Notes under the pieces: generated by a model | Told to the model about the DNA's origin: nothing | The model's database searches: none | What the model saw: only the letters and a program-made list of their open reading frames with translations | Assembly: GCA_047602425.1 (NCBI GenBank) | Contig: JASGHG010000001.1 | Span: forward strand, 3,360,001 to 3,424,000 | Length of the DNA stretch: 64,000 nt | Direction of reading: 5' to 3' | Origin: Nibricoccus sp. | Lineage (GTDB): Bacteria > Verrucomicrobiota > Verrucomicrobiia > Opitutales > Opitutaceae | Made by a program: the position numbers and the translations under genes | Shown: piece after piece, positions 28,651 through 41,796 of the stretch | Layout of the letters: each line of letters starts with the position of its first letter | Position numbering within the stretch: position 1 is the first letter of the stretch

Positions 28651-29145
28651 TCAGTAGCGATCCATGATCTGATAAAACAGCCAGTAGGTGCCCACCGTGA
28701 CGAGGGCCGAGGCGGAGGCTGCGGCGATCTGCGTCTCCTGCATGGGAGGAAAATAAAAATATGCGCCCCAGATGAGACCGTTCAAGAGCACCACGGAAAA
28801 AAGAAAGTCACGTCGCCGCCGATTGGGCAGGCTTTTGAGCTTTTTGCGCGGCACCTGGGCCTCGGCCGCGGCGTTTTCCAGGAGAATTTGGTCCACTGAG
28901 ATGGTTTCGGTATTCGTTTCCTCGACCACCTCGATCTGTTTGGCTTTGAGCGAAAGGCTCTTCTTTTGCGGAAAAAACCTGGCAAGTAGTTCGGGTATTT
29001 CCCGCACGGCTTTCCAATCCTCCGTGCCCTCCGGTGCAAGCTGGGCGTCGGCGTCGAAAACGCGAACGGAGGCCATTTCTTCGAGAGCGGCATCGCTGAA
29101 GGGACCAGTTATTTTTTCACCAACTTTGAGGCGGAAGCGGGGCAT
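28651..29145 (-). CDS. GYF_2 (DUF4339)-like domain membrane protein
   Basis: N-terminal GPFS..ALEEM......DAQLAPEGTEDWKAVREIPEL pattern; two C-terminal TM helices. Confidence 0.7.
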   Translation of the reverse strand: MPRFRLKVGEKITGPFSDAALEEMASVRVFDADAQLAPEGTEDWKAVREIPELLARFFPQKKSLSLKAKQIEVVEETNTETISVDQILLENAAAEAQVPRKKLKSLPNRRRRDFLFSVVLLNGLIWGAYFYFPPMQETQIAAASASALVTVGTYWLFYQIMDRY

Positions 29146-29167
29146 GGTATTTGGAGACAGGCAAATA

Positions 29168-29632
29168 CTAACCTGTTGATCCTGATGGCTGCAAACCGAG
29201 TTTTTTGGCGAGACGGCAAAGCTCGGATTTTTCATCCGCCGTCAAAACTGCAAACTCAGCGGCGATGCGAGCGGCGACCTTCGGGAAAAGTTTTGCGATC
29301 AGGCCGCGGCCGCGCGGTGTGAGGCTGACCGTAATGAAACGCAGGTCGTCGGGTTGACGCACGCGTTTGATCAGCCCGGCCTTCTCAAGATTGCTGATCA
29401 CGAGTGTGAGATTTGCGGTGCTTTTCAGAAGTTTGGAGGCGAGCGACCCCTGACAAAGCGGCCCGAGATGGAAAAGCGTTTCCAAAACGGCGAACTGCGT
29501 AACGGTTAAATCGGCCGGAAGCGTTTCATGCACACGCGAAGTGACGGACTCAGTTGCGCGGCACAATTTAATGTACGCATCCAAGGAGGCGATTTCAGCC
29601 GGAGATCCTTGATAATGCGTAGGCATGTCCAT
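29168..29632 (-). CDS. MarR-family transcriptional regulator
   Basis: LTVTQFAVLE, NLTLVISNLEKAGLIKR...DDLR...VSLTPRG winged helix. Confidence 0.93.
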   Translation of the reverse strand: MDMPTHYQGSPAEIASLDAYIKLCRATESVTSRVHETLPADLTVTQFAVLETLFHLGPLCQGSLASKLLKSTANLTLVISNLEKAGLIKRVRQPDDLRFITVSLTPRGRGLIAKLFPKVAARIAAEFAVLTADEKSELCRLAKKLGLQPSGSTG

Positions 29633-30469: not shown

Positions 30470-30554
30470 GAAGTGAACTCGTAAAATGTCGGGTTGTCGG
30501 TATGTTAGGGTCAACCCCCAGTCAGCAAACAAAATCAGCTTCCTCCCCACGCTT

Positions 30555-30983
30555 ATGAAATCCCAAGTCCTGTGCTTCGCCGCAGCTTTAGCTGCGTTAA
30601 CTTTTGTTTTTGTCGGATGTTCCACTACGGATTCGCGCGTCAAAGACAACCAGGCCGCCTTCAACGCAGCCCCGCCGGATGTGCAGGCCAAGATTCGCGA
30701 GGGCAAAGTCGCCGTGGGCTTTACTGAGGTGCAAGTGTTGATGGCGCTCGGCAAACCCGATCGGCGTTACACTCGCACGACGGCGGCGGGCACGACCGAC
30801 GTTTGGGCTTATGAGGATCACAAACCCTCTTTTAGTTTCGGCGTCGGCATGGCGAGCGGCGGTGGCGGCACGATGGTGGGCAGTGGCGTAGCCGTAGGCA
30901 CGGGCGATCGCAGCGGGGATAAACTCCGGGTGATTATGACCGGCGGGGTTGTTACGGCCTTGGAATCGCGCGGACGTCCCTGA
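30555..30983 (+). CDS. Lipoprotein, SmpA/OmlA(BamE)-like
   Basis: Lipobox FVGC; VGFT..QV.MALGKPD...WAY pattern. Confidence 0.8.
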   Translation: MKSQVLCFAAALAALTFVFVGCSTTDSRVKDNQAAFNAAPPDVQAKIREGKVAVGFTEVQVLMALGKPDRRYTRTTAAGTTDVWAYEDHKPSFSFGVGMASGGGGTMVGSGVAVGTGDRSGDKLRVIMTGGVVTALESRGRP

Positions 30984-31747: not shown

Positions 31748-32170
31748 ATGAAAACGTTCATTAGTTTCGTCGCCTGTCTCACTCTCGCCTTTCTGGCCGG
31801 TTGCTCCACGCCGGAAGCGCGGATCAATCAAAACCCAGAGGCTTTTGCCAAGCTTAGTCCTGGCGACCAGCAACTCATTCGCGAGGGCAAGGTCGCGGTT
31901 GGTTTTACTCAGGAGATGGTCAAGCTCGCACTCGGCGATCCAGATAAAATCTACACGCGCACCGATGCCAACGGAGTGAACGAAGCGTGGAGTTATACGA
32001 CCTACGAGACGGATGCCGGCGTGATTTTATATCGCGGTTACTACCACCGTTATTGGTGCGATCCGTTTTATTATCCCTATTACGCTAGTTATGGTAACCG
32101 CCGGGATCGCGAATACCTGAAGGTGGTCTTCACCGAAGGCCGCGTTTCGTTGATCGAAAAACAAACCTGA
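31748..32170 (+). CDS. Lipoprotein, paralog of 30555..30983
   Basis: Lipobox LAGC; shares IREGKVAVGFT..V..ALG.PD..YTRT with its paralog. Confidence 0.82.
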   Translation: MKTFISFVACLTLAFLAGCSTPEARINQNPEAFAKLSPGDQQLIREGKVAVGFTQEMVKLALGDPDKIYTRTDANGVNEAWSYTTYETDAGVILYRGYYHRYWCDPFYYPYYASYGNRRDREYLKVVFTEGRVSLIEKQT

Positions 32171-32428: not shown

Positions 32429-35206
32429 TTATTCGGCGCTGATCTTGAACGGAATCGTCACGCGGGAACGTGCGGGCTTGCCGCGAACGGCGCCGGGTTT
32501 GAAGCGCCACTTGGTCGCAGCAGCCAGGCAGGCTTTGCCGAAGGCAGGGCTCGAAGCCTGTTCGACTTTGAGGTCGGTCGGGATGCCGTCCTTGCCAACC
32601 ACGAGCGAGATGAGCGCTGAGCCGCCTTCGGCGCGCTGACTCGTCGAGAGATCGGGATCAGCTTGTGCGATCGGAGTCGGACGCTCGTCGAGTTCGCTCA
32701 ACTTCATCACGCGATCCGAATCCTGCATGAGGCCGTTGAGCGTAAGGGTCTTTCCGCTCTCAACTTTACCAGTTAGCGTAACTGGGTCGCAGCCGCGGTA
32801 GGTGAGGGTAAAGCTCACGTTGCCGGGCGGGATGCCGTTGATCGTATGAGGCGTGGTGCCGATTTTGACTTGGTTGTCGCGGAGAATTTCAGCGCCTTGC
32901 GGGTTGCTGTTGATGACGACCGTGCCACCGGAGAACTCGCCATTCACGCGGCTCGAACCGTTGCGTTCGACCGTGACGGTTGTGGTGTAGGCTGGCCAAT
33001 TTGGACGGCTGATTGTCACCTGATAGGATCCGACGGGCAGACCGGTGAGGGACGCAGGTGTCTGACCTGTACGCACGTCACTCGGATTGAAGAACAGCGT
33101 GCCGGCAGGTTTAACCTCGTAAGCGAGGTTGCTCGGATCGCTGCTCAGTTCGATGGCACCCACCTGACGTTTCAGGACAACGGTGCCGAGATCGGTCGTT
33201 TCCTTGTCTTTGATCTCGAAGGTACGGGTTTCGCTATCGTAACCCGGCATCGAAATGGTCGCGGTGTAGGGCCCGAGGCGCATGTCCTTGATGGTAAGGG
33301 GCGCGGTCTTGGTGCCGTAAATATCCACATTAACGGAGGCGCCAGCGGGGTCGGTGGCAACCACGAGAATACCGCGGCCGTAAATGAACTTGTTGCGCTC
33401 CTCGTCCTGACGTTTGCGCAATTCCTCAAGTTCACGCGCACGTTTGATCTCGGCTTCTTTTTCAGCCAGTTCGCGTGCTTTGCGTTCTTCGTCAGCCTTG
33501 CGTTGTTGTTCGGCGAGCTCGCGTTCCTTGGCCTTGATTTTGGCCTCGGTTTCAACGCGGATGCGCTCACGCTCCTTGGCTTCGGCCTCGGCCTTGCTCT
33601 TGCCGCTGATCATGAAGAACGCAGCGACGCCGATGACGGCGGCCACGCCGATCACGATCGGAATCAGCATATTGCTCTTCTTGGGCGGGAAAGGGGCCGC
33701 GGTGGCGGGCTTGGAGCCGCCGCTGACGACCGGAGCCGGGGAGGGTTTGGCGGCAGGAGCTGGTTTGGCCGGCTCGGGCTTCGGAGAGGGCTTCGCTGCG
33801 GGGGCCGGCGCAGCGGGCTTGGCTGCGGCGGCGGGTTTGGCGGGCTCAGCTGGTTTGGCTTGGGCGGGCGGGGTGCCAGCCGGTTTGGCCGGCGGCGTGG
33901 CGGGCTTGGCCGGCTCCGCCGGTTTGGCGGGCGGAGTAATGACAACCGCGGGTTTCGCCGGCGCAGGGGGCGTGGCGGGCTTGGCGGGGGGCGTTGCGGC
34001 CTTGGGCGGGTCTTGAATGATGGCCGGGATCACCGCGGGCTTGGCGGGTTCGGCTGGTTTTGCGGGGGCGGCGGGCTTGGCCGGCTCCGGAAGGATGGCC
34101 GGGATCACCGCGGGAGGCGGCGTCGCGGGTTTGGCCGGGGTCGGCTCGATCAAGATCGCCGGGATGATCGGAGCTGCGGCGACCGGAGTATTGGTAAGAA
34201 TGGGATTCCACGGGCGGACACCGCCCGGTTGGGCGAATTCGTGGGTGGCAACAGCATTGAGCACACCGAGCCACGAGGGAGAAATGTCAGCCGCGCTGAG
34301 GCCCGCGCCGAACGCGAGGCCGCGACCGCTGGCCCATGCGGAGATATCAGGCGCGAATGGCGCGAGGCCGGTGCTTTTCGCGAGAGCTTGATTGATCCAG
34401 GCCTGGCGGGCGAGAAGGCCGGCGCAAACAAACTGGGCGGGATTGCCAAGGCCGGGGAGCGCGCCTTTGATGGCGGTGGCAAGTGGTTCGACGATGGCGG
34501 TGGAGGTTTCGCTGAAATCGTACGAATCGTTAAACATCAGACGGCCGGCGGAGCCCTTGAACTTCAGGCCGAGGGCGGTCTGGGTGGAACCAGCGAGTGT
34601 ATCCAAGCCGACCGGTACGGTGGCCAGTGCGGTCACGCCCTGGCTCGATATCGCGATCAGGGTCGAATTGTTTTCCGAAACCTCGACGAGGAGGACGGTG
34701 TTCGTTTTCGCCGCGGTGGAGATGGCGCCTGCCAGGGTGAGCGGTGCGGATTGGCAGCGAACGAGTTCAAAGGTCCAACCGCGGAGCTTGCCGAGGGATT
34801 CTTCCGTGTTGGTGGAAGGCGAGGCGTCGAGCGCCCAGCGTGCACCGCCTTGGGGAACGAGTCCAGTGCCGGCGCCGAACCAAGCCCAATTGGCGGGCAT
34901 GTTTTCCGCGCCCAGTGTGGTCCGGAGAAAGTTTTCGACCGCGTCGGGAGTGGCGACGCTCTTGCCTTGGGCGGCATCGGCCAGAAGGGTGCTGCGAGCT
35001 TTAAGGCGGAGCAGGGCGGTGGCTTTGGACCCGCCGCCGGCAGGGCGCAGCTCGTTGATCACGGCATCGGTTGCCGCCGAATCGCCAAGCCATACTTCCT
35101 TGATGGCCTCGATGGTGCGGGGCTTGGGGCCAAGAGTGGCTCGGGCAATTACCAAATTATATTCACCCAGTTCGACGAAGAATCCGATAGAGTCTGAAGC
35201 GCTCAT
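32429..35206 (-). CDS. Multidomain membrane protein: PilM/actin-like domain, Pro-Ala-Lys linker, TM, coiled coil, 3xPEGA, TonB C-terminal domain
   Basis: TonB_C (LVVGKDG...AATKWRFKPG...GKP..SRVTIPF); three PEGA-type repeats (G.L.V.TDPAGA, IELSSDP, VINSNPQGA...G.TP); single TM at aa 513-533; N-terminal ~320 aa follows the PilM motif order. Confidence 0.85.
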   Translation of the reverse strand: MSASDSIGFFVELGEYNLVIARATLGPKPRTIEAIKEVWLGDSAATDAVINELRPAGGGSKATALLRLKARSTLLADAAQGKSVATPDAVENFLRTTLGAENMPANWAWFGAGTGLVPQGGARWALDASPSTNTEESLGKLRGWTFELVRCQSAPLTLAGAISTAAKTNTVLLVEVSENNSTLIAISSQGVTALATVPVGLDTLAGSTQTALGLKFKGSAGRLMFNDSYDFSETSTAIVEPLATAIKGALPGLGNPAQFVCAGLLARQAWINQALAKSTGLAPFAPDISAWASGRGLAFGAGLSAADISPSWLGVLNAVATHEFAQPGGVRPWNPILTNTPVAAAPIIPAILIEPTPAKPATPPPAVIPAILPEPAKPAAPAKPAEPAKPAVIPAIIQDPPKAATPPAKPATPPAPAKPAVVITPPAKPAEPAKPATPPAKPAGTPPAQAKPAEPAKPAAAAKPAAPAPAAKPSPKPEPAKPAPAAKPSPAPVVSGGSKPATAAPFPPKKSNMLIPIVIGVAAVIGVAAFFMISGKSKAEAEAKERERIRVETEAKIKAKERELAEQQRKADEERKARELAEKEAEIKRARELEELRKRQDEERNKFIYGRGILVVATDPAGASVNVDIYGTKTAPLTIKDMRLGPYTATISMPGYDSETRTFEIKDKETTDLGTVVLKRQVGAIELSSDPSNLAYEVKPAGTLFFNPSDVRTGQTPASLTGLPVGSYQVTISRPNWPAYTTTVTVERNGSSRVNGEFSGGTVVINSNPQGAEILRDNQVKIGTTPHTINGIPPGNVSFTLTYRGCDPVTLTGKVESGKTLTLNGLMQDSDRVMKLSELDERPTPIAQADPDLSTSQRAEGGSALISLVVGKDGIPTDLKVEQASSPAFGKACLAAATKWRFKPGAVRGKPARSRVTIPFKISAE

Positions 35207-35415
35207 TATGTTGAAGATACGTAGAAAGCTTTTTAGAAAAGAGGCCCGCCTGAGGCGTAATCTCTAAATAACTGCTGTAAAGGTAAAAGTCTTTGTGTCG
35301 TTGTTATTTTTTGAGTATAGGCTTGAAAGTCTGGTGAGGTAAAATCACCAGATTTACGAGAGATTGACGTTGTCTAGATTTCCCCTTCCGACAGAATGTA
35401 TTAACTGAAAGACCA

Positions 35416-38400
35416 GTGAGCGCCAAAATCCTGCTAGTTCAACACAGCGACATGCTTCGCCAAGCCAGATCTTTGATCTTTGGCGGGGCCTTTTTCCATG
35501 CATTGTCATTGCGAGAGGCATCACAGGTGAACGATTACTTGGCGCGTGAGACGGTGGACGTGATTTTGGCGGATTGTCGGGGGGCGGATGCAAATGGTTT
35601 GGATTTTGTTGAGGCATTACGCAAGGCTCAACCGCGTGCAAAAGTGATTCTTGTGGCCGATGGTTTGGATTTGCCCACGGTGGTTCGTGGCATCCGTCTG
35701 GGAGTTAAGGATGTGTTCCAACCACCGCTCGACATCGAGGCGATGACCAAGCGCATCACGGACTTTATCGCCAAAGGCGACGGCGCGGGCGAAGCGTTGC
35801 GCAACGCCGACTGGAGTTCACTCGAAGATTTCTTCCAAGGTGGCAGCGGCACTCCTGCCGCCGAGGTTGCAGCCAAGACTCCGCCGCCCAAAAAAGATCG
35901 CGCGAAACCGTCGTCTATTGAGAGCGACGCGGTGCGGGAAGAACTGGCCAAGGAACGCGCCACTCTTTCGACGGAACGCGCCCGCATTGCCGAGGAAGCC
36001 AAAAAGGTCGAGCAACGTGTTGCCGCGCTTGAAGCCGAGCGCGCCACCGTGGCGGCCAACATGGCCAAGCTCGCCGACATTCAAAAAGCCGAGGCAAAAC
36101 TCAAGCAGCGTGAAGACGCACTGGTTTCTGCTCAAGAACGTCTCCTGATGGATCAGGAGAAACTTGATGCCGAACAAGCGATGGTGAAACAAAATGCGGC
36201 GAAGAAAAAAGCCGACGACAGCGCCGCCGAAGCCGCCGAACGCAAGCGTTTGGAAGAGGAAAAAGAACGCCTTGCCGAGGAAAGCGCCGCTCTTGAGGCC
36301 GCCCGCAAGGAAATCGCCGGAGCCGAGAAAAAACTCGAAGAACTTCGCATCCTCCAAAAACAGCAGGACGCCGCGGCCAAGGCGCTCAAACAGGAGCGCG
36401 ACGCGCTCGCTGCCGAACAAGAGCAACTGGCCCAAGAACAGGCGAATCTGGCCGCAGCCCTCAAGGAGCTCGACCAAAAGCGCAAGGCTGGAGAAACCCG
36501 CCAAAAGGAAATTGAGAAGGAGCAGCAGCGTCTCTCTGACATGGAGGCCTCGCTCATGGCCGATCAGGCCGCGCAGAAGAAATCCGAGCAACGCATCGCC
36601 GCCGAACGCGCCGAACTTCAAACCCAACTAGATGCTGTAGCTAAACGCGAAGCCGGAATCCGCGAAAAAGAAAGCCAGGCCAAAGCCTCGGTCGACAAGG
36701 CCAAGGCCGATGCCGATGCTCTCGTGGCCAAGGTTCGCGCCGAAGTTGCCGCCGAACGCGCGGCGCTCGCCGATTCTGAAACCGCTGTGGTGGCCGAGCG
36801 GGCCAAGCTCAAGAAAGCCGAGCAGAAGCTCGCCGTCGAAAGCACCGAGGTTGAACAACAAGCCGCCCTGCTCGCCGACCGCGAAGCGGCCTTGGCTGCT
36901 CAAGAACAGCAGATCAAGGCCAAGATGAGCAAGGCCGAGTCCGAGGCCGCCGCCCTCGTGGCCAAAGCCAAGGCCGATGCCAACAAAGAGCAGGCCCGCC
37001 TCGCCGATGCCGAAGCGGCGATCGAAACCGAAAAGGTCGCTCTCAAACAGGCGCAGCAAAAACTTTCGACCGACCAAGATTCCTTTAAGAAAAACGCCGC
37101 CACCTTTGCCGAGCGCGAAACAGCTCTCGCCACTCGTGAAAAGACGCTTCGCGACGAACAGGCCAAGGCGAAGGTCGAATTTGAAGCGGCACAGGCAGAA
37201 GCCGCCGCCATTCTTAAGAAAGCCAAGGCCGACGCCGAACAGGAGCAGCGCAAAATCGCCGAAGGCGAAGCCGCCCTCGTCGCCGCCAAGGCCGCGCTCA
37301 AGAAATCCGAACAGCAGGTTGTCACCCAGCGCACTGAACTCGAGGAAATGGAAGCCTCGCTTTCGGAACGTGAAGTCCTGATCAAACAGCAAGAGACAAA
37401 AGCCAAGACCGCCGTCGACAAGGCACAGGCCGAGGCCGACGCACTGCTCAAGAAAGCCAAGGCCGACGCCGAAAAGGAACAGCTCAAGCTGGCTGAACTC
37501 GAGGAATCCATTCTCACCGAGAAAAACGCGCTCAAGCAAAACGAGCAGCGCCTCGCTGCGGAACAAGCCGCGCTCAAGAAAAAGGCCGACGAATTTGCCG
37601 CCCGCGAAACCGCGCTCCGCGAACAAGAGGCCAAGGCTAAAAGTGCGCTCGAAAAAGCGAACACCGAGGCATCTTCGATCATCGCCAAGGCGAAAGCCGA
37701 GGCCGACAAGGAGCAGCAGGCGCTCGCCGAGATGGAAGCGTCGCTCTCCGCCGAGAAGGAAACGCTCAAGAAAGCCGAACAGCATTACGCCAAGGAGCGC
37801 ATCGAAATTCAGACGCAGATGGATCAGCTCGGCGAACGCGAAGCCCTATTGATTGCCCGCGAGTCGAAACTCAAGCAGCAGGAGACGCAACTCGCCACGG
37901 CGCTCGACAAAGCCAAGGCCGAGGCCGACACCATTATCAAGAAAGCGAAAGCCGAAGCTGAAAAAGAACAGGCCAAGCTTGCAGAACTGGAAACGTCGAT
38001 CGCGACCGAGCGCGCCACGCTTAAGAAGAACGAACAGAAACTTCTCACGGAGCGCGCCGAGCTTGAAGAACATTTGGCCACGCTCGAAGTTGAGAAGAAG
38101 AAGCTCGCGACCGATCAGGCTGCGATGAAGAGGCTGGCCGACGAAGCTCGCGCCAAAGTCGAAGCCGAACTCAAAGCCGGCAAGGACGCTATTGCCAAGG
38201 AAAAGTCCGAGTTCGCCAAACAGCGTGTCATCGTCGAGGAAGAACTCGAAACAGCCCGCTTGTCGGTTTCGCAGACCGAGAAAAAACTCAAAGCCGATCA
38301 GGAAAAAATCGCCGCCACCGAGGCAAAGATCAAAGCCATGGAGGCCAAGGTCAAAGCCGAGCAGGAGGAAGTCGAACGCATTGGCGCGGAAGTCGAAGCC

Positions 38401-38691
38401 TCACAAGCCAAACTCAAGGCCGATCTCGCCAAGGTCGAAGCTGCCAACAAGAACTTTGCCAAGAAGGAAGCCGAACTCGCCGACATCGAGTCGAAGCTCC
38501 AACTCGAAGAAGGCCGCTTGAAAAAGGAAGCCGCGAAATTCGCCCAGGAACGCAGCCTGTGGGAAGCCGAAGTGGGTTCCTTCCAAGACGAGAAAAAGAA
38601 GTTCGTCGATGCCACGGCGCAGTTCGAAAAACGCCGCAAGCAGGTTCTCGAACAGGCCAAGGCCCTCTTGGAACGCGACGCCGCGGGTTGA
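35416..38691 (+). CDS. Atypical receiver domain plus ~900-aa coiled coil (AglZ/FrzS-like architecture)
   Basis: KILLVQH...VDVILAD...NGLDFVEALR...KVILVA...G...GVKDVFQPP receiver fold, then a continuous E/K/A/Q/L coiled coil; GTG start. Confidence 0.88.
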   Translation: MSAKILLVQHSDMLRQARSLIFGGAFFHALSLREASQVNDYLARETVDVILADCRGADANGLDFVEALRKAQPRAKVILVADGLDLPTVVRGIRLGVKDVFQPPLDIEAMTKRITDFIAKGDGAGEALRNADWSSLEDFFQGGSGTPAAEVAAKTPPPKKDRAKPSSIESDAVREELAKERATLSTERARIAEEAKKVEQRVAALEAERATVAANMAKLADIQKAEAKLKQREDALVSAQERLLMDQEKLDAEQAMVKQNAAKKKADDSAAEAAERKRLEEEKERLAEESAALEAARKEIAGAEKKLEELRILQKQQDAAAKALKQERDALAAEQEQLAQEQANLAAALKELDQKRKAGETRQKEIEKEQQRLSDMEASLMADQAAQKKSEQRIAAERAELQTQLDAVAKREAGIREKESQAKASVDKAKADADALVAKVRAEVAAERAALADSETAVVAERAKLKKAEQKLAVESTEVEQQAALLADREAALAAQEQQIKAKMSKAESEAAALVAKAKADANKEQARLADAEAAIETEKVALKQAQQKLSTDQDSFKKNAATFAERETALATREKTLRDEQAKAKVEFEAAQAEAAAILKKAKADAEQEQRKIAEGEAALVAAKAALKKSEQQVVTQRTELEEMEASLSEREVLIKQQETKAKTAVDKAQAEADALLKKAKADAEKEQLKLAELEESILTEKNALKQNEQRLAAEQAALKKKADEFAARETALREQEAKAKSALEKANTEASSIIAKAKAEADKEQQALAEMEASLSAEKETLKKAEQHYAKERIEIQTQMDQLGEREALLIARESKLKQQETQLATALDKAKAEADTIIKKAKAEAEKEQAKLAELETSIATERATLKKNEQKLLTERAELEEHLATLEVEKKKLATDQAAMKRLADEARAKVEAELKAGKDAIAKEKSEFAKQRVIVEEELETARLSVSQTEKKLKADQEKIAATEAKIKAMEAKVKAEQEEVERIGAEVEASQAKLKADLAKVEAANKNFAKKEAELADIESKLQLEEGRLKKEAAKFAQERSLWEAEVGSFQDEKKKFVDATAQFEKRRKQVLEQAKALLERDAAG

Positions 38692-40772: not shown

Positions 40773-41058
40773 ATGCGCGCACTATGGAGTGCCAGCTTGA
40801 GTTCAAGCGGAACGAATTGGGTGCTTGATATTGAGACGGACGACGGGTGCCAACCTGTTGAAGCCGGATTTTTTGAGGCTGACCTCACCGCCGTACTTAG
40901 GCGGTTGTGGCTTTTAAGTTTTTGAATTCACTGAGTATCGCTGGAAATGTCGGTTTTTATAACGTTTGCCTGCGCTTACTTAGGCCATGCTGACGGGATG
41001 CGATGTCGGGCGGGGTTATATTCATAGAGGCATAGATAAATTTAACCCAACTTCCCCA

Positions 41059-41796
41059 ATGAAAACGCTCCATGGCTTTGCCCTGTTGTTGGCGGGACTC
41101 TTGGTGAGCCCGGCCCTTTCGCCAGCGGTTTTTGCCGCCGAGGCTTCGGATAAGAGACTAGCAGTGATACAGACCACCGAACCATTCGTGCGCACCAGGA
41201 TTGCCCAAGTCCTGCCCGCCCACGCGCAAGTTCGTTTGTTGATCAACGTGGACGCGACCGGAAAGCTCGTCGACTGGTTGTTGCTCGATTATTCCGAATC
41301 GATTTTTGCCGACGCCGTTGTGGACGCGGTGAAGCAGTGGAGATTCGATCCGGCGACTTACAAGGGCACGCCCATCGGCACGCGGACAACGCTGGTCTTC
41401 AATTTTGAAACAAATGGGCAGGTCGTATCGATGACTTGCCTGGATATGATCGATGCCTACATGAAAAACTTTACAAAGGACCAGATGGTGAAATGCGTGG
41501 TTCCGGGCAAGGAACTGGACTCCGCACCAAAGCCATTGGTTATGGTTTCGCCGCTGGCGATTCCGGCCGAACTAGCGGCCGGCGCCTCGGGTGTCACGGT
41601 CGATTTTTATATCGACGAAACCGGACGTCCCCGGATGCCCGCGGTGGATGTGAAGGAAAACGATCCGATGGCCCTGGCGTCGCTCGCCGCGATCGAGCAC
41701 TGGCGGTTCACGCCGCCGACGAGCAAAGGCCGCCCGGTCACTGTTAGAGCAACTCAGTGGTTCGATTTCAGCAAGACGACGGTTGCGGCAAAATAG
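41059..41796 (+). CDS. Secreted TonB-family protein with two TonB C-terminal domains
   Basis: Signal peptide; VDATGKL...AVKQWRFDPA and IDETGRP...AIEHWRFTPP..KGRPV repeats. Confidence 0.8.
   Translation: MKTLHGFALLLAGLLVSPALSPAVFAAEASDKRLAVIQTTEPFVRTRIAQVLPAHAQVRLLINVDATGKLVDWLLLDYSESIFADAVVDAVKQWRFDPATYKGTPIGTRTTLVFNFETNGQVVSMTCLDMIDAYMKNFTKDQMVKCVVPGKELDSAPKPLVMVSPLAIPAELAAGASGVTVDFYIDETGRPRMPAVDVKENDPMALASLAAIEHWRFTPPTSKGRPVTVRATQWFDFSKTTVAAK

Follow-up and report, generated by a model that had tools for sequence, protein, structure and literature searches.

A PilM-like domain fused to PEGA and TonB_C domains in Opitutales: a possible trans-envelope accessory of type IV pili

The window analysed here, a stretch of 64,000 nucleotides from Nibricoccus sp. 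(Verrucomicrobiota, Opitutaceae; GenBank assembly GCA_047602425.1, contig JASGHG010000001.1, positions 3,360,001 to 3,424,000), carries on its minus strand a gene for a protein of 925 amino acids (aa), called the fusion below, in which a PilM-like domain is joined through a proline-rich tether and a membrane helix to three PEGA domains and a TonB C-terminal domain (TonB_C). Judging from its sequence, the N-terminal domain is a paralogue of the PilM encoded in the pilus operon of Opitutales rather than an FtsA-like protein; the fusion family is apparently real, conserved and undescribed. The interpretation favoured here, tentatively, is that the fusion, a bitopic protein resembling GspL, would assist the type IV pilus machinery of Opitutales as a passive, non-energised trans-envelope anchor or polarity scaffold. 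Pilus and secretion machines are known to have PilM-fold domains at their base; the fusion sets one on a TonB-like, envelope-spanning stalk with a probable polarity partner.

Domain architecture

The gene and its parts have the following window coordinates:

32429..35206, minus strand: whole gene, 925 aa, with PilM-like domain, PilN-like peptide, proline-rich tether, membrane helix, charged helix, three PEGA domains and TonB_C
34241..35206, minus strand: PilM-fold domain, aa 1-322, predicted to be cytoplasmic, with degenerate nucleotide motifs
34193..34216, minus strand: PilN-like peptide around Trp333, aa 331-338, the putative cis filler of the PilN-binding groove
33674..34189, minus strand: Pro/Ala-rich tether, aa 340-511, about 31% Pro, preceding the membrane helix and thus cytoplasmic
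33608..33664, minus strand: single membrane helix, aa 515-533, with Lys-Lys just before it and without His
33380..33604, minus strand: charged helical stalk, aa 535-609, periplasmic, a probable coiled coil by composition
32711..33379, minus strand: three PEGA beta-sandwich domains, aa ~610-832
32432..32695, minus strand: TonB C-terminal domain, aa ~838-925

As the first-pass annotation had stated, the parts are fused in one chain; the open reading frame (ORF) runs through 925 aa without an internal stop, and its GC content of about 0.60 is ordinary for the window. An assembly chimera is excluded, since 44 of 62 loci from other genomes hold PilM-like, PEGA and TonB_C parts in one ORF. Pfam recognises PEGA in three stretches (E 1.2e-24) and TonB_C at residues 857-920 (E 5.1e-9), and it reported no match for residues 1-335; NCBIfam gave none for residues 1-340 scanned alone. 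Because the sole hydrophobic segment lies at about residues 510-537 and has Lys-Lys ahead of it, the N-terminal domain and the following proline-rich stretch of about 175 aa are predicted to be cytoplasmic, and the last ~390 aa periplasmic.

The N-terminal domain

The actin/PilM-type fold that the first-pass annotation had proposed from the order of PilM motifs held up: all ten of the quoted motif strings that were looked up stand in order between residues 7 and 316, and the comparison with PilM, FtsA and MreB structures that it had suggested found the model of residues 1-335 to match PilM best, and FtsA next. This AlphaFold model has a pLDDT of 96.0 and a pTM of 0.94; the top seven rows retrieved with it in Foldseek are all P. 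aeruginosa PilM (E 6e-14 to 1e-12), followed by FtsA. VIA-align gave Z 19.6 for the T. thermophilus PilM 2YCH (rmsd 4.3, 303 residues aligned) and Z 18.8 for the PilM of 3JC8, against Z 17-18 for FtsA and Z ~12 for MreB; the model is also structurally nearer to PilM than to EpsL (1YF5, TM 0.38). Since the PilM and FtsA scores are close, the assignment leans also on sequence and context. A profile of 148 rows retrieved 2YCH (E 1.6e-6) as well as the PilMs of M. xanthus and P. aeruginosa (E ~0.0015); the domain as a single sequence retrieved one irrelevant match from the PDB (E 0.45). In the ESM Atlas the fusion falls with PilM-family clusters (0.92 by features, TM ~0.7 by structure), and a "hypothetical" cluster of 53 members and 1005 aa has PEGA and TonB_C. 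Pfam PilM_2 found 0 matches in the window's genome, the N-terminal domain of the fusion and the standalone Opitutales PilMs alike remaining below its cut-off; this corrects a mis-annotation, as Pfam overlooks the PilM domain both in the fusions and in the ordinary PilMs of the order.

Immediately behind this domain stands a PilN-like peptide, an element absent from the first-pass annotation. The cytoplasmic tail of Opitutales PilN carries the motif W-[HR]-P-[ND]-F-R in 35 of 36 PilN-like proteins; the fusions carry W-x-P-x-[WL] (PilN-type, W-x-P-x-aromatic) right behind the last PilM helix, and Trp333 is invariant in 25 rows. A Trp located 5-25 residues past this helix occurs in 91/91 fusions versus 0/31 standalone PilMs. 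When the flanks of this residue were scored against 35 PilN peptides, it was the best Trp of its own protein in 37 of 91 cases against 11.0 expected, a comparison that uses the flanking residues alone and, the rows being related, yields no probability; the mean flank score was -1.41 for the peptide Trp versus -7.85 for 745 other Trp. In five natural PilM-PilN fusions of ~545 aa the peptide lies 25-27 residues past the same helix, versus mostly 13-20 in the TonB_C-type family. The aligned range of the model reaches residue 361 of the PilM:PilN(1-12) chimera 5EOU versus 353-354 for PilM alone, which is suggestive only. The PilM domain of the fusion probably fills its own PilN groove in cis, and we infer that the family arose at a PilM-PilN junction. 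Natural PilM-PilN fusions of 542-555 aa were found in Opitutaceae (L120-L123, with two in L122), grouped with a second type of standalone pilM.

Canonical PilM binds ATP without turnover. The pattern of its nucleotide motifs (phosphate-1 Asp, phosphate-2 Gly, adenosine Gly-Gly) was checked against 16 presumed PilMs of other orders whose identity is unconfirmed by Pfam; the phosphate-1 Asp is present in 16/16 of these and the adenosine Gly-Gly in 14/16. In the fusions, Glu occupies the phosphate-1 Asp position in 78 of 97 and L, I, V or F stands in for the second adenosine Gly in 89 of 97; 64 of 97 retain the phosphate-2 Gly. The 925-aa protein has Glu12, Ser177 (at the phosphate-2 Gly position) and Leu264, in agreement with the degenerate ATP motifs noted in the first pass. 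Loss of these motifs as a special trait of the fusion was rejected, as the standalone Opitutales PilMs have drifted in the same way (phosphate-1 position Glu in 15/32 and Asp in 10/32; second adenosine Gly replaced by Leu in 24/32). Nucleotide binding has likely been lost in the PilM domain of the fusion, which would be a trait of the lineage.

Membrane helix and periplasmic part

One strong membrane helix is present in 101 of 103 long homologues, and its core contains His in 3 of the 101; the TonB pattern S-x3-H-x6-L occurs in 0/101. The claim that the fusion's own helix (~515-533) lacks His was borne out. The periplasmic part measures 377-413 residues in 70 of 101 homologues, with a median of 393 for those falling in a 370-420 bracket; the length of the cytoplasmic tether varies between ~45 and 400 residues. 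A model of residues 593-925 (pLDDT 95.5) shows three beta-sandwiches and a terminal domain closest to the TonB C-terminal domain (TonB-CTD); it matches TonB-CTD 6i97_E at Z 11.9 (rmsd 1.8, 86 aligned) and TolA-III chains at Z 6.5-6.6.

The first-pass annotation had described the actin-fold domain as wired directly to an outer-membrane-contacting domain. "Directly" overstates the link, and contact with the outer membrane would be a conjecture: between the two ends lie the cytoplasmic proline-rich tether of ~175 aa, the membrane helix, a helix of ~75 aa and three PEGA domains, and the window's genome holds 29 TonB_C matches, many of them in small or tandem proteins, besides 20 TonB-dependent receptor matches, so that the TonB_C domain alone names no target here; one subfamily moreover has other domains in place of PEGA and TonB_C. 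A kinase (P0209), a sigma factor (P0207) and an M56 peptidase (P0208) bear PEGA or TonB_C modules too. Proteins of ~410 aa consisting of membrane helix, PEGA and TonB_C start at the Met ahead of the helix, possibly through wrong start calls, and they are not put forward as a split form.

Distribution and relationship to the operon PilM

At 50% identity, a search with the N-terminal domain yielded 187 representatives; 150 of them were listed, and 57 long ones were scanned for domains. Of these, 32 of the 57 have PEGA and TonB_C, and the others PEGA only, LamG, DUF1349 or nothing named. The 62 loci came from a species collection by a search pattern that favours close relatives; besides the 44 with the complete architecture, 10 lack both PEGA and TonB_C and 8 are truncated at the 3' end; the record titles of the loci are mostly Opitutaceae or unclassified Verrucomicrobia. 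Among 301 Opitutales genomes, 133 have a PilM-like match, and at least 25 contain an open frame of 600 aa or more among the matches listed (23 stand outside the listing). In a sample of the phylum, frames of at least 690 aa were confined to this order among the matches listed (87 weaker matches stand outside). Public names of the homologues include "TonB family protein", as the first pass had guessed for automatic annotation, and also "PEGA domain-containing protein" and "hypothetical protein". Its remark that the architecture is unfamiliar from characterised proteins accords with the open full-text literature, in which no description of a PilM-like/PEGA/TonB_C fusion was found; tables of genome papers could list the gene. 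One homologue, P0175, is labelled Nibricoccus aquaticus CMV30_01530, and its occurrence in a named species makes the idea testable.

In the window's genome the N-terminal domain has just one other significant match, a gene that opens a pilMNOPQ-like operon whose last member is a secretin. A one-base frameshift near L001:15391 breaks this operon pilM (L001:14846-15884; G000:C1:1634845-1635883, minus strand) in two; at that position the contig of a relative, ~90% alike, is one base shorter. The frameshift may be an assembly error. None of the sequencing runs searched with the pilM stretch contained half of its words. Across L001:11453-15884, the Opitutales pilM, pilN, pilO and pilP-like genes escape Pfam, which recognises the secretin alone, without a listed AMIN domain. 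A standalone PilM is also listed in 14/14 other genomes with a long fused frame; the fusion is for this reason an addition and not a replacement, and the idea that it substitutes for a broken operon pilM was rejected.

In a tree of 63 rows (27 of 90 were omitted for speed), the fusions and the Opitutales PilMs stand together on one side, opposite the presumed PilMs of other orders (SH-aLRT 100), and the standalone and PilM-PilN (PilMN) forms constitute one branch (99) apart from the fusions. Descent of the fusions from present-day PilMN fusions of ~545 aa is unsupported, as the latter fall within the standalone branch. Forms with other periplasmic domains are for the most part nested among those with TonB_C. 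A subfamily of ~700 aa (L087, L092, L096, L097, L099, L101, L106, L108, L109) has an unnamed periplasmic domain of ~210 aa in place of PEGA and TonB_C, and in 8 of 9 cases lies directly downstream of a receiver/coiled-coil gene; an Atlas search with the swapped domain retrieved clusters without a name, plus a single lactonase N-domain row (0.90). Further variants include two PilM-like long ORFs in tandem, of 714 and 777 aa (L048:9223-13845), two fusion-family members each at L038 and L039, ~22 kb apart, and short (~400 aa), strongly diverged members of the fused lineage without a long C-terminal part (L156:359-1591, L157:427-1605).

A conserved receiver/coiled-coil partner

A second conserved gene, absent from the first-pass annotation, adjoins the fusion in the window:

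35207..35415, no strand: divergent intergenic region of 209 bp between fusion and partner gene
35416..38691, plus strand: partner gene, divergent from the fusion, 1091 aa, with an atypical receiver at aa 5-114 followed by ~900 aa of Pro/Gly-poor, coiled-coil-like sequence

In a first set of 21 loci, 14 have a partner-like gene beside the fusion, in one case with no receiver detected. By a profile built from this set, which shares a few loci with the 62, the partner adjoins the fusion in 39 of the 62 loci (57 informative), with 24 divergent, 14 upstream and co-oriented, and 1 downstream. Among the loci without an adjacent partner, 16 of 18 share a different conserved neighbourhood by gene sizes, in one of which sucAB-lpd was identified. 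Members of this partner-less clade have a conserved gene of ~237 aa without an NCBIfam match, directly upstream of the fusion and co-oriented with it (L094:6254-6961 and equivalents). Across the order, a long-frame partner match was found in 18 of 301 genomes, all among the 25 with a listed fusion and distributed over four families, leaving 7 of the 25 without a partner; in this search 12 candidates were scored per genome, the coiled coil is unchecked in 5 of the 18, and kin are not independent.

The partner's receiver retains the phospho-acceptor Asp in 34 of 39 rows; its conserved Lys is found in 0/39 and the acidic pocket is absent. The coiled coil was judged by composition only. The last 25 residues, a C-terminal helix, are conserved among the Opitutaceae members, and could be a binding or membrane-targeting element. 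Complex prediction with the PilM-like domain and the partner receiver scored 0.00 in both runs with the controls unfolded, which speaks neither for nor against a contact. The layout recalls FrzS, a pseudo-receiver/coiled-coil pilus regulator (PMC11580455), and AglZ, a receiver/coiled-coil protein linked to MreB (PMC11761067); the likeness, an atypical receiver followed by a long coiled coil, is one of layout only and does not imply orthology.

Functional interpretation

The link of the fusion to pili is drawn from the PilM ancestry of its N-terminal domain, its coexistence with pilM, the FrzS-like partner, and the position of pilC directly upstream of the fusion in 2 of the 21 loci; the window's genome has 8 PilB/PilT-type ATPase matches and 3 secretins. 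PilM and PilN together are the equivalent of GspL, the anchor of the traffic ATPase (PMC4471445). In the proposed anchor, the Trp333 peptide would fill the PilN groove in cis; with its groove self-filled, the domain would be fixed in the PilN-bound state, and because of this would have no place in the normal PilMNOP ring. Probably binding no nucleotide, the PilM domain on its flexible tether would offer PilB/PilT-type ATPases, the coiled-coil partner or both a surface to dock on. A passive membrane helix would lead into a periplasmic stalk (~25 nm if extended, by estimate) that is long enough to cross the periplasm and would hold the TonB_C domain, which may grip a strand of a periplasmic or outer-membrane protein, for example a secretin N-domain. 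The partner would act in the manner of FrzS, placing or switching the complex at a cell site.

Several observations weigh against this proposal. The fusion lies outside pilus operons in 19 of the 21 loci examined, and its range is patchy: among the matches listed, only 25 of the 133 genomes with a PilM-like match have a fusion, from which it follows that the fusion is dispensable for pili. Since LamG, DUF1349 or an unnamed domain replaces PEGA and TonB_C in a nested subfamily that often retains the partner, TonB_C is not the core of the function. The adjacent partner is absent from 18 of the 57 informative loci, and none was found in five such partner-less genomes that were searched. The tree does not resolve the fusions as one clade, has long branches meeting among them, and does not nest them in present-day PilMN fusions; a single origin of the fusions would still be compatible with it. 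Finally, as the window's genome gave 0 matches for the MglB-type roadblock and none over the cut-off for MglA, the Myxococcus polarity circuit is not copied here.

An envelope-sensing signalling pair detached from pili is an unlikely alternative that nevertheless deserves to be weighed; the exchangeable periplasmic module would sense a ligand or the state of the outer membrane, and a co-opted PilM domain would signal to the receiver/coiled-coil partner. Swapping of the periplasmic part (LamG, DUF1349, unnamed) with retention of the cytoplasmic part and partner would suit such a sensor, as would the partner's frequently retained phospho-acceptor Asp and the presence of PEGA or TonB_C modules on the kinase, sigma factor and M56 peptidase mentioned above; yet an enzymatic or DNA-binding output domain is missing from both proteins, the partner's receiver is without the conserved Lys and acidic pocket, a flexible tether of ~175 aa should be a poor conduit for a conformational signal, and the PilN-type peptide is retained. 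A more ambitious and slightly more doubtful proposal would make the fusion and its partner the core of an undescribed Opitutales trans-envelope adhesion or polarity machine, in which parts of a type IV pilus are arranged in the layout of a Myxococcus focal adhesion (TonB_C-ended membrane protein, actin-fold module and AglZ/FrzS-like coiled coil), with exchangeable periplasmic tips picking different outer-envelope targets.

It is improbable that the pair belongs to an undescribed surface-motility or focal-adhesion machine like Myxococcus Agl-Glt, composed of a TonB_C-ended bitopic protein with a built-in actin-fold domain standing in for MreB, an AglZ-like partner and a TolQR/ExbBD-type motor that supplies the force. 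Both GltG and GltJ are bitopic proteins that end in a TonB-CTD-like domain, and the receiver/coiled-coil protein AglZ is linked to MreB (PMC11761067); five MotA/ExbB matches occur in the window's genome. Against these likenesses stand the lack of a motor gene among the recurring neighbours in the 21 loci, a membrane helix without the His motif, the lack of MglB and of an MglA over the cut-off, an N-terminal domain closer to PilM than to MreB (Z 19.6 vs ~12), and a literature search on gliding or twitching in Opitutales that gave no relevant paper. Less probable again is a cell-shape or division scaffold, whose domain would polymerise like FtsA and connect inner membrane and outer envelope, the coiled-coil partner forming a filament: FtsA scores just 1-2 Z units under PilM and the partner is very long and coiled-coil-like, but sequence and tree put the N-terminal domain with PilM, the genome has its own FtsA and MreB, the distribution is patchy, and the nucleotide motifs are lost. 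The reading implied by automatic annotation, that the fusion is an ordinary energised TonB to which a cytoplasmic domain has been added, is very improbable, since the affinity of its C-terminal domain to TonB-CTD and the 20 TonB-dependent receptor matches in the genome are countered by the presence of helix-core His in only 3 of 101 homologues and of the S-x3-H-x6-L pattern in none, by a proline-rich part that is cytoplasmic, the reverse of TonB, by the lack of exbBD or a receptor among recurring neighbours in the 21 loci, and by a conventional exbD-exbD-tonB cluster elsewhere in the genome.

If the fusion is indeed a trans-envelope anchor for pili, it would represent a new means of positioning or anchoring type IV pili, found in a lineage that is common in soil and fresh water and whose surface appendages are barely studied.

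Other features of the locus

The 209-bp intergenic region contains one sigma-70-like match on the minus strand (35343-35314), 1 found versus a shuffle mean of 0.6 and thus not above chance; promoter and terminator matches at the fusion locus are generally at chance level. Two related small lipoprotein-like ORFs with weak OsmE/BamE-type matches (30486-30983 and 31748-32170, both on the plus strand) are kept beside the fusion in close relatives. A GYF_2-domain membrane protein (28651-29235, minus strand) lies 3 kb from the fusion, and is nearby in 3 of the 21 loci, in close relatives only; GltJ binds AglZ via a GYF domain. A 269-aa protein with two TonB_C domains is encoded at 40987-41796 on the plus strand.

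Comparison with known systems

Type IVa PilM (T. thermophilus 2YCH, P. aeruginosa 5EOX/5EOU, M. xanthus 3JC8) has the same fold over the whole N-terminal domain of the fusion, which appears to be a paralogue of its host's own operon PilM; unlike these proteins, the fusion is not soluble, lies outside the pilMNOPQ operon, and has a cis PilN-type peptide, a tether, a membrane helix, a periplasmic part and degenerate nucleotide motifs. With TonB and TolA it shares the single membrane helix, the extended periplasmic stalk and a TonB-CTD; it differs in its helix without His, the cytoplasmic position of the proline-rich segment, the large cytoplasmic domain, and the absence of linked exbBD or tolQR. 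The Myxococcus proteins GltG/GltJ with AglZ, and FrzS, resemble the fusion pair in that a receiver/coiled-coil partner accompanies a bitopic protein, which has a docking domain on its cytoplasmic side and ends in a TonB-CTD-like domain (PMC11761067, PMC11580455). Unlike in GltG/GltJ, the cytoplasmic domain of the fusion is PilM-like and not of the FHA, ZnR or GYF type, no linked motor or Glt genes were seen (Glt proteins were not searched for), and MglAB was not found.

A further parallel is offered by GspL/EpsL, BfpC and the natural PilM-PilN fusions, in which a PilM-fold cytoplasmic domain, one membrane helix and a periplasmic part are likewise combined in one chain (PMC4471445). PilMN fusions of ~545 aa occur in the same order as the TonB_C-type fusion. 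Unlike GspL and PilMN, the fusion is without the ferredoxin-like PilN/GspL periplasmic domain, and has a helix, three PEGA domains and TonB_C instead; it has a long cytoplasmic proline-rich tether, and no adjacent pilO or gspM in the loci examined. The fusion thus stands outside PilM proper, GspL and TonB, but it probably works like GspL and PilMN.

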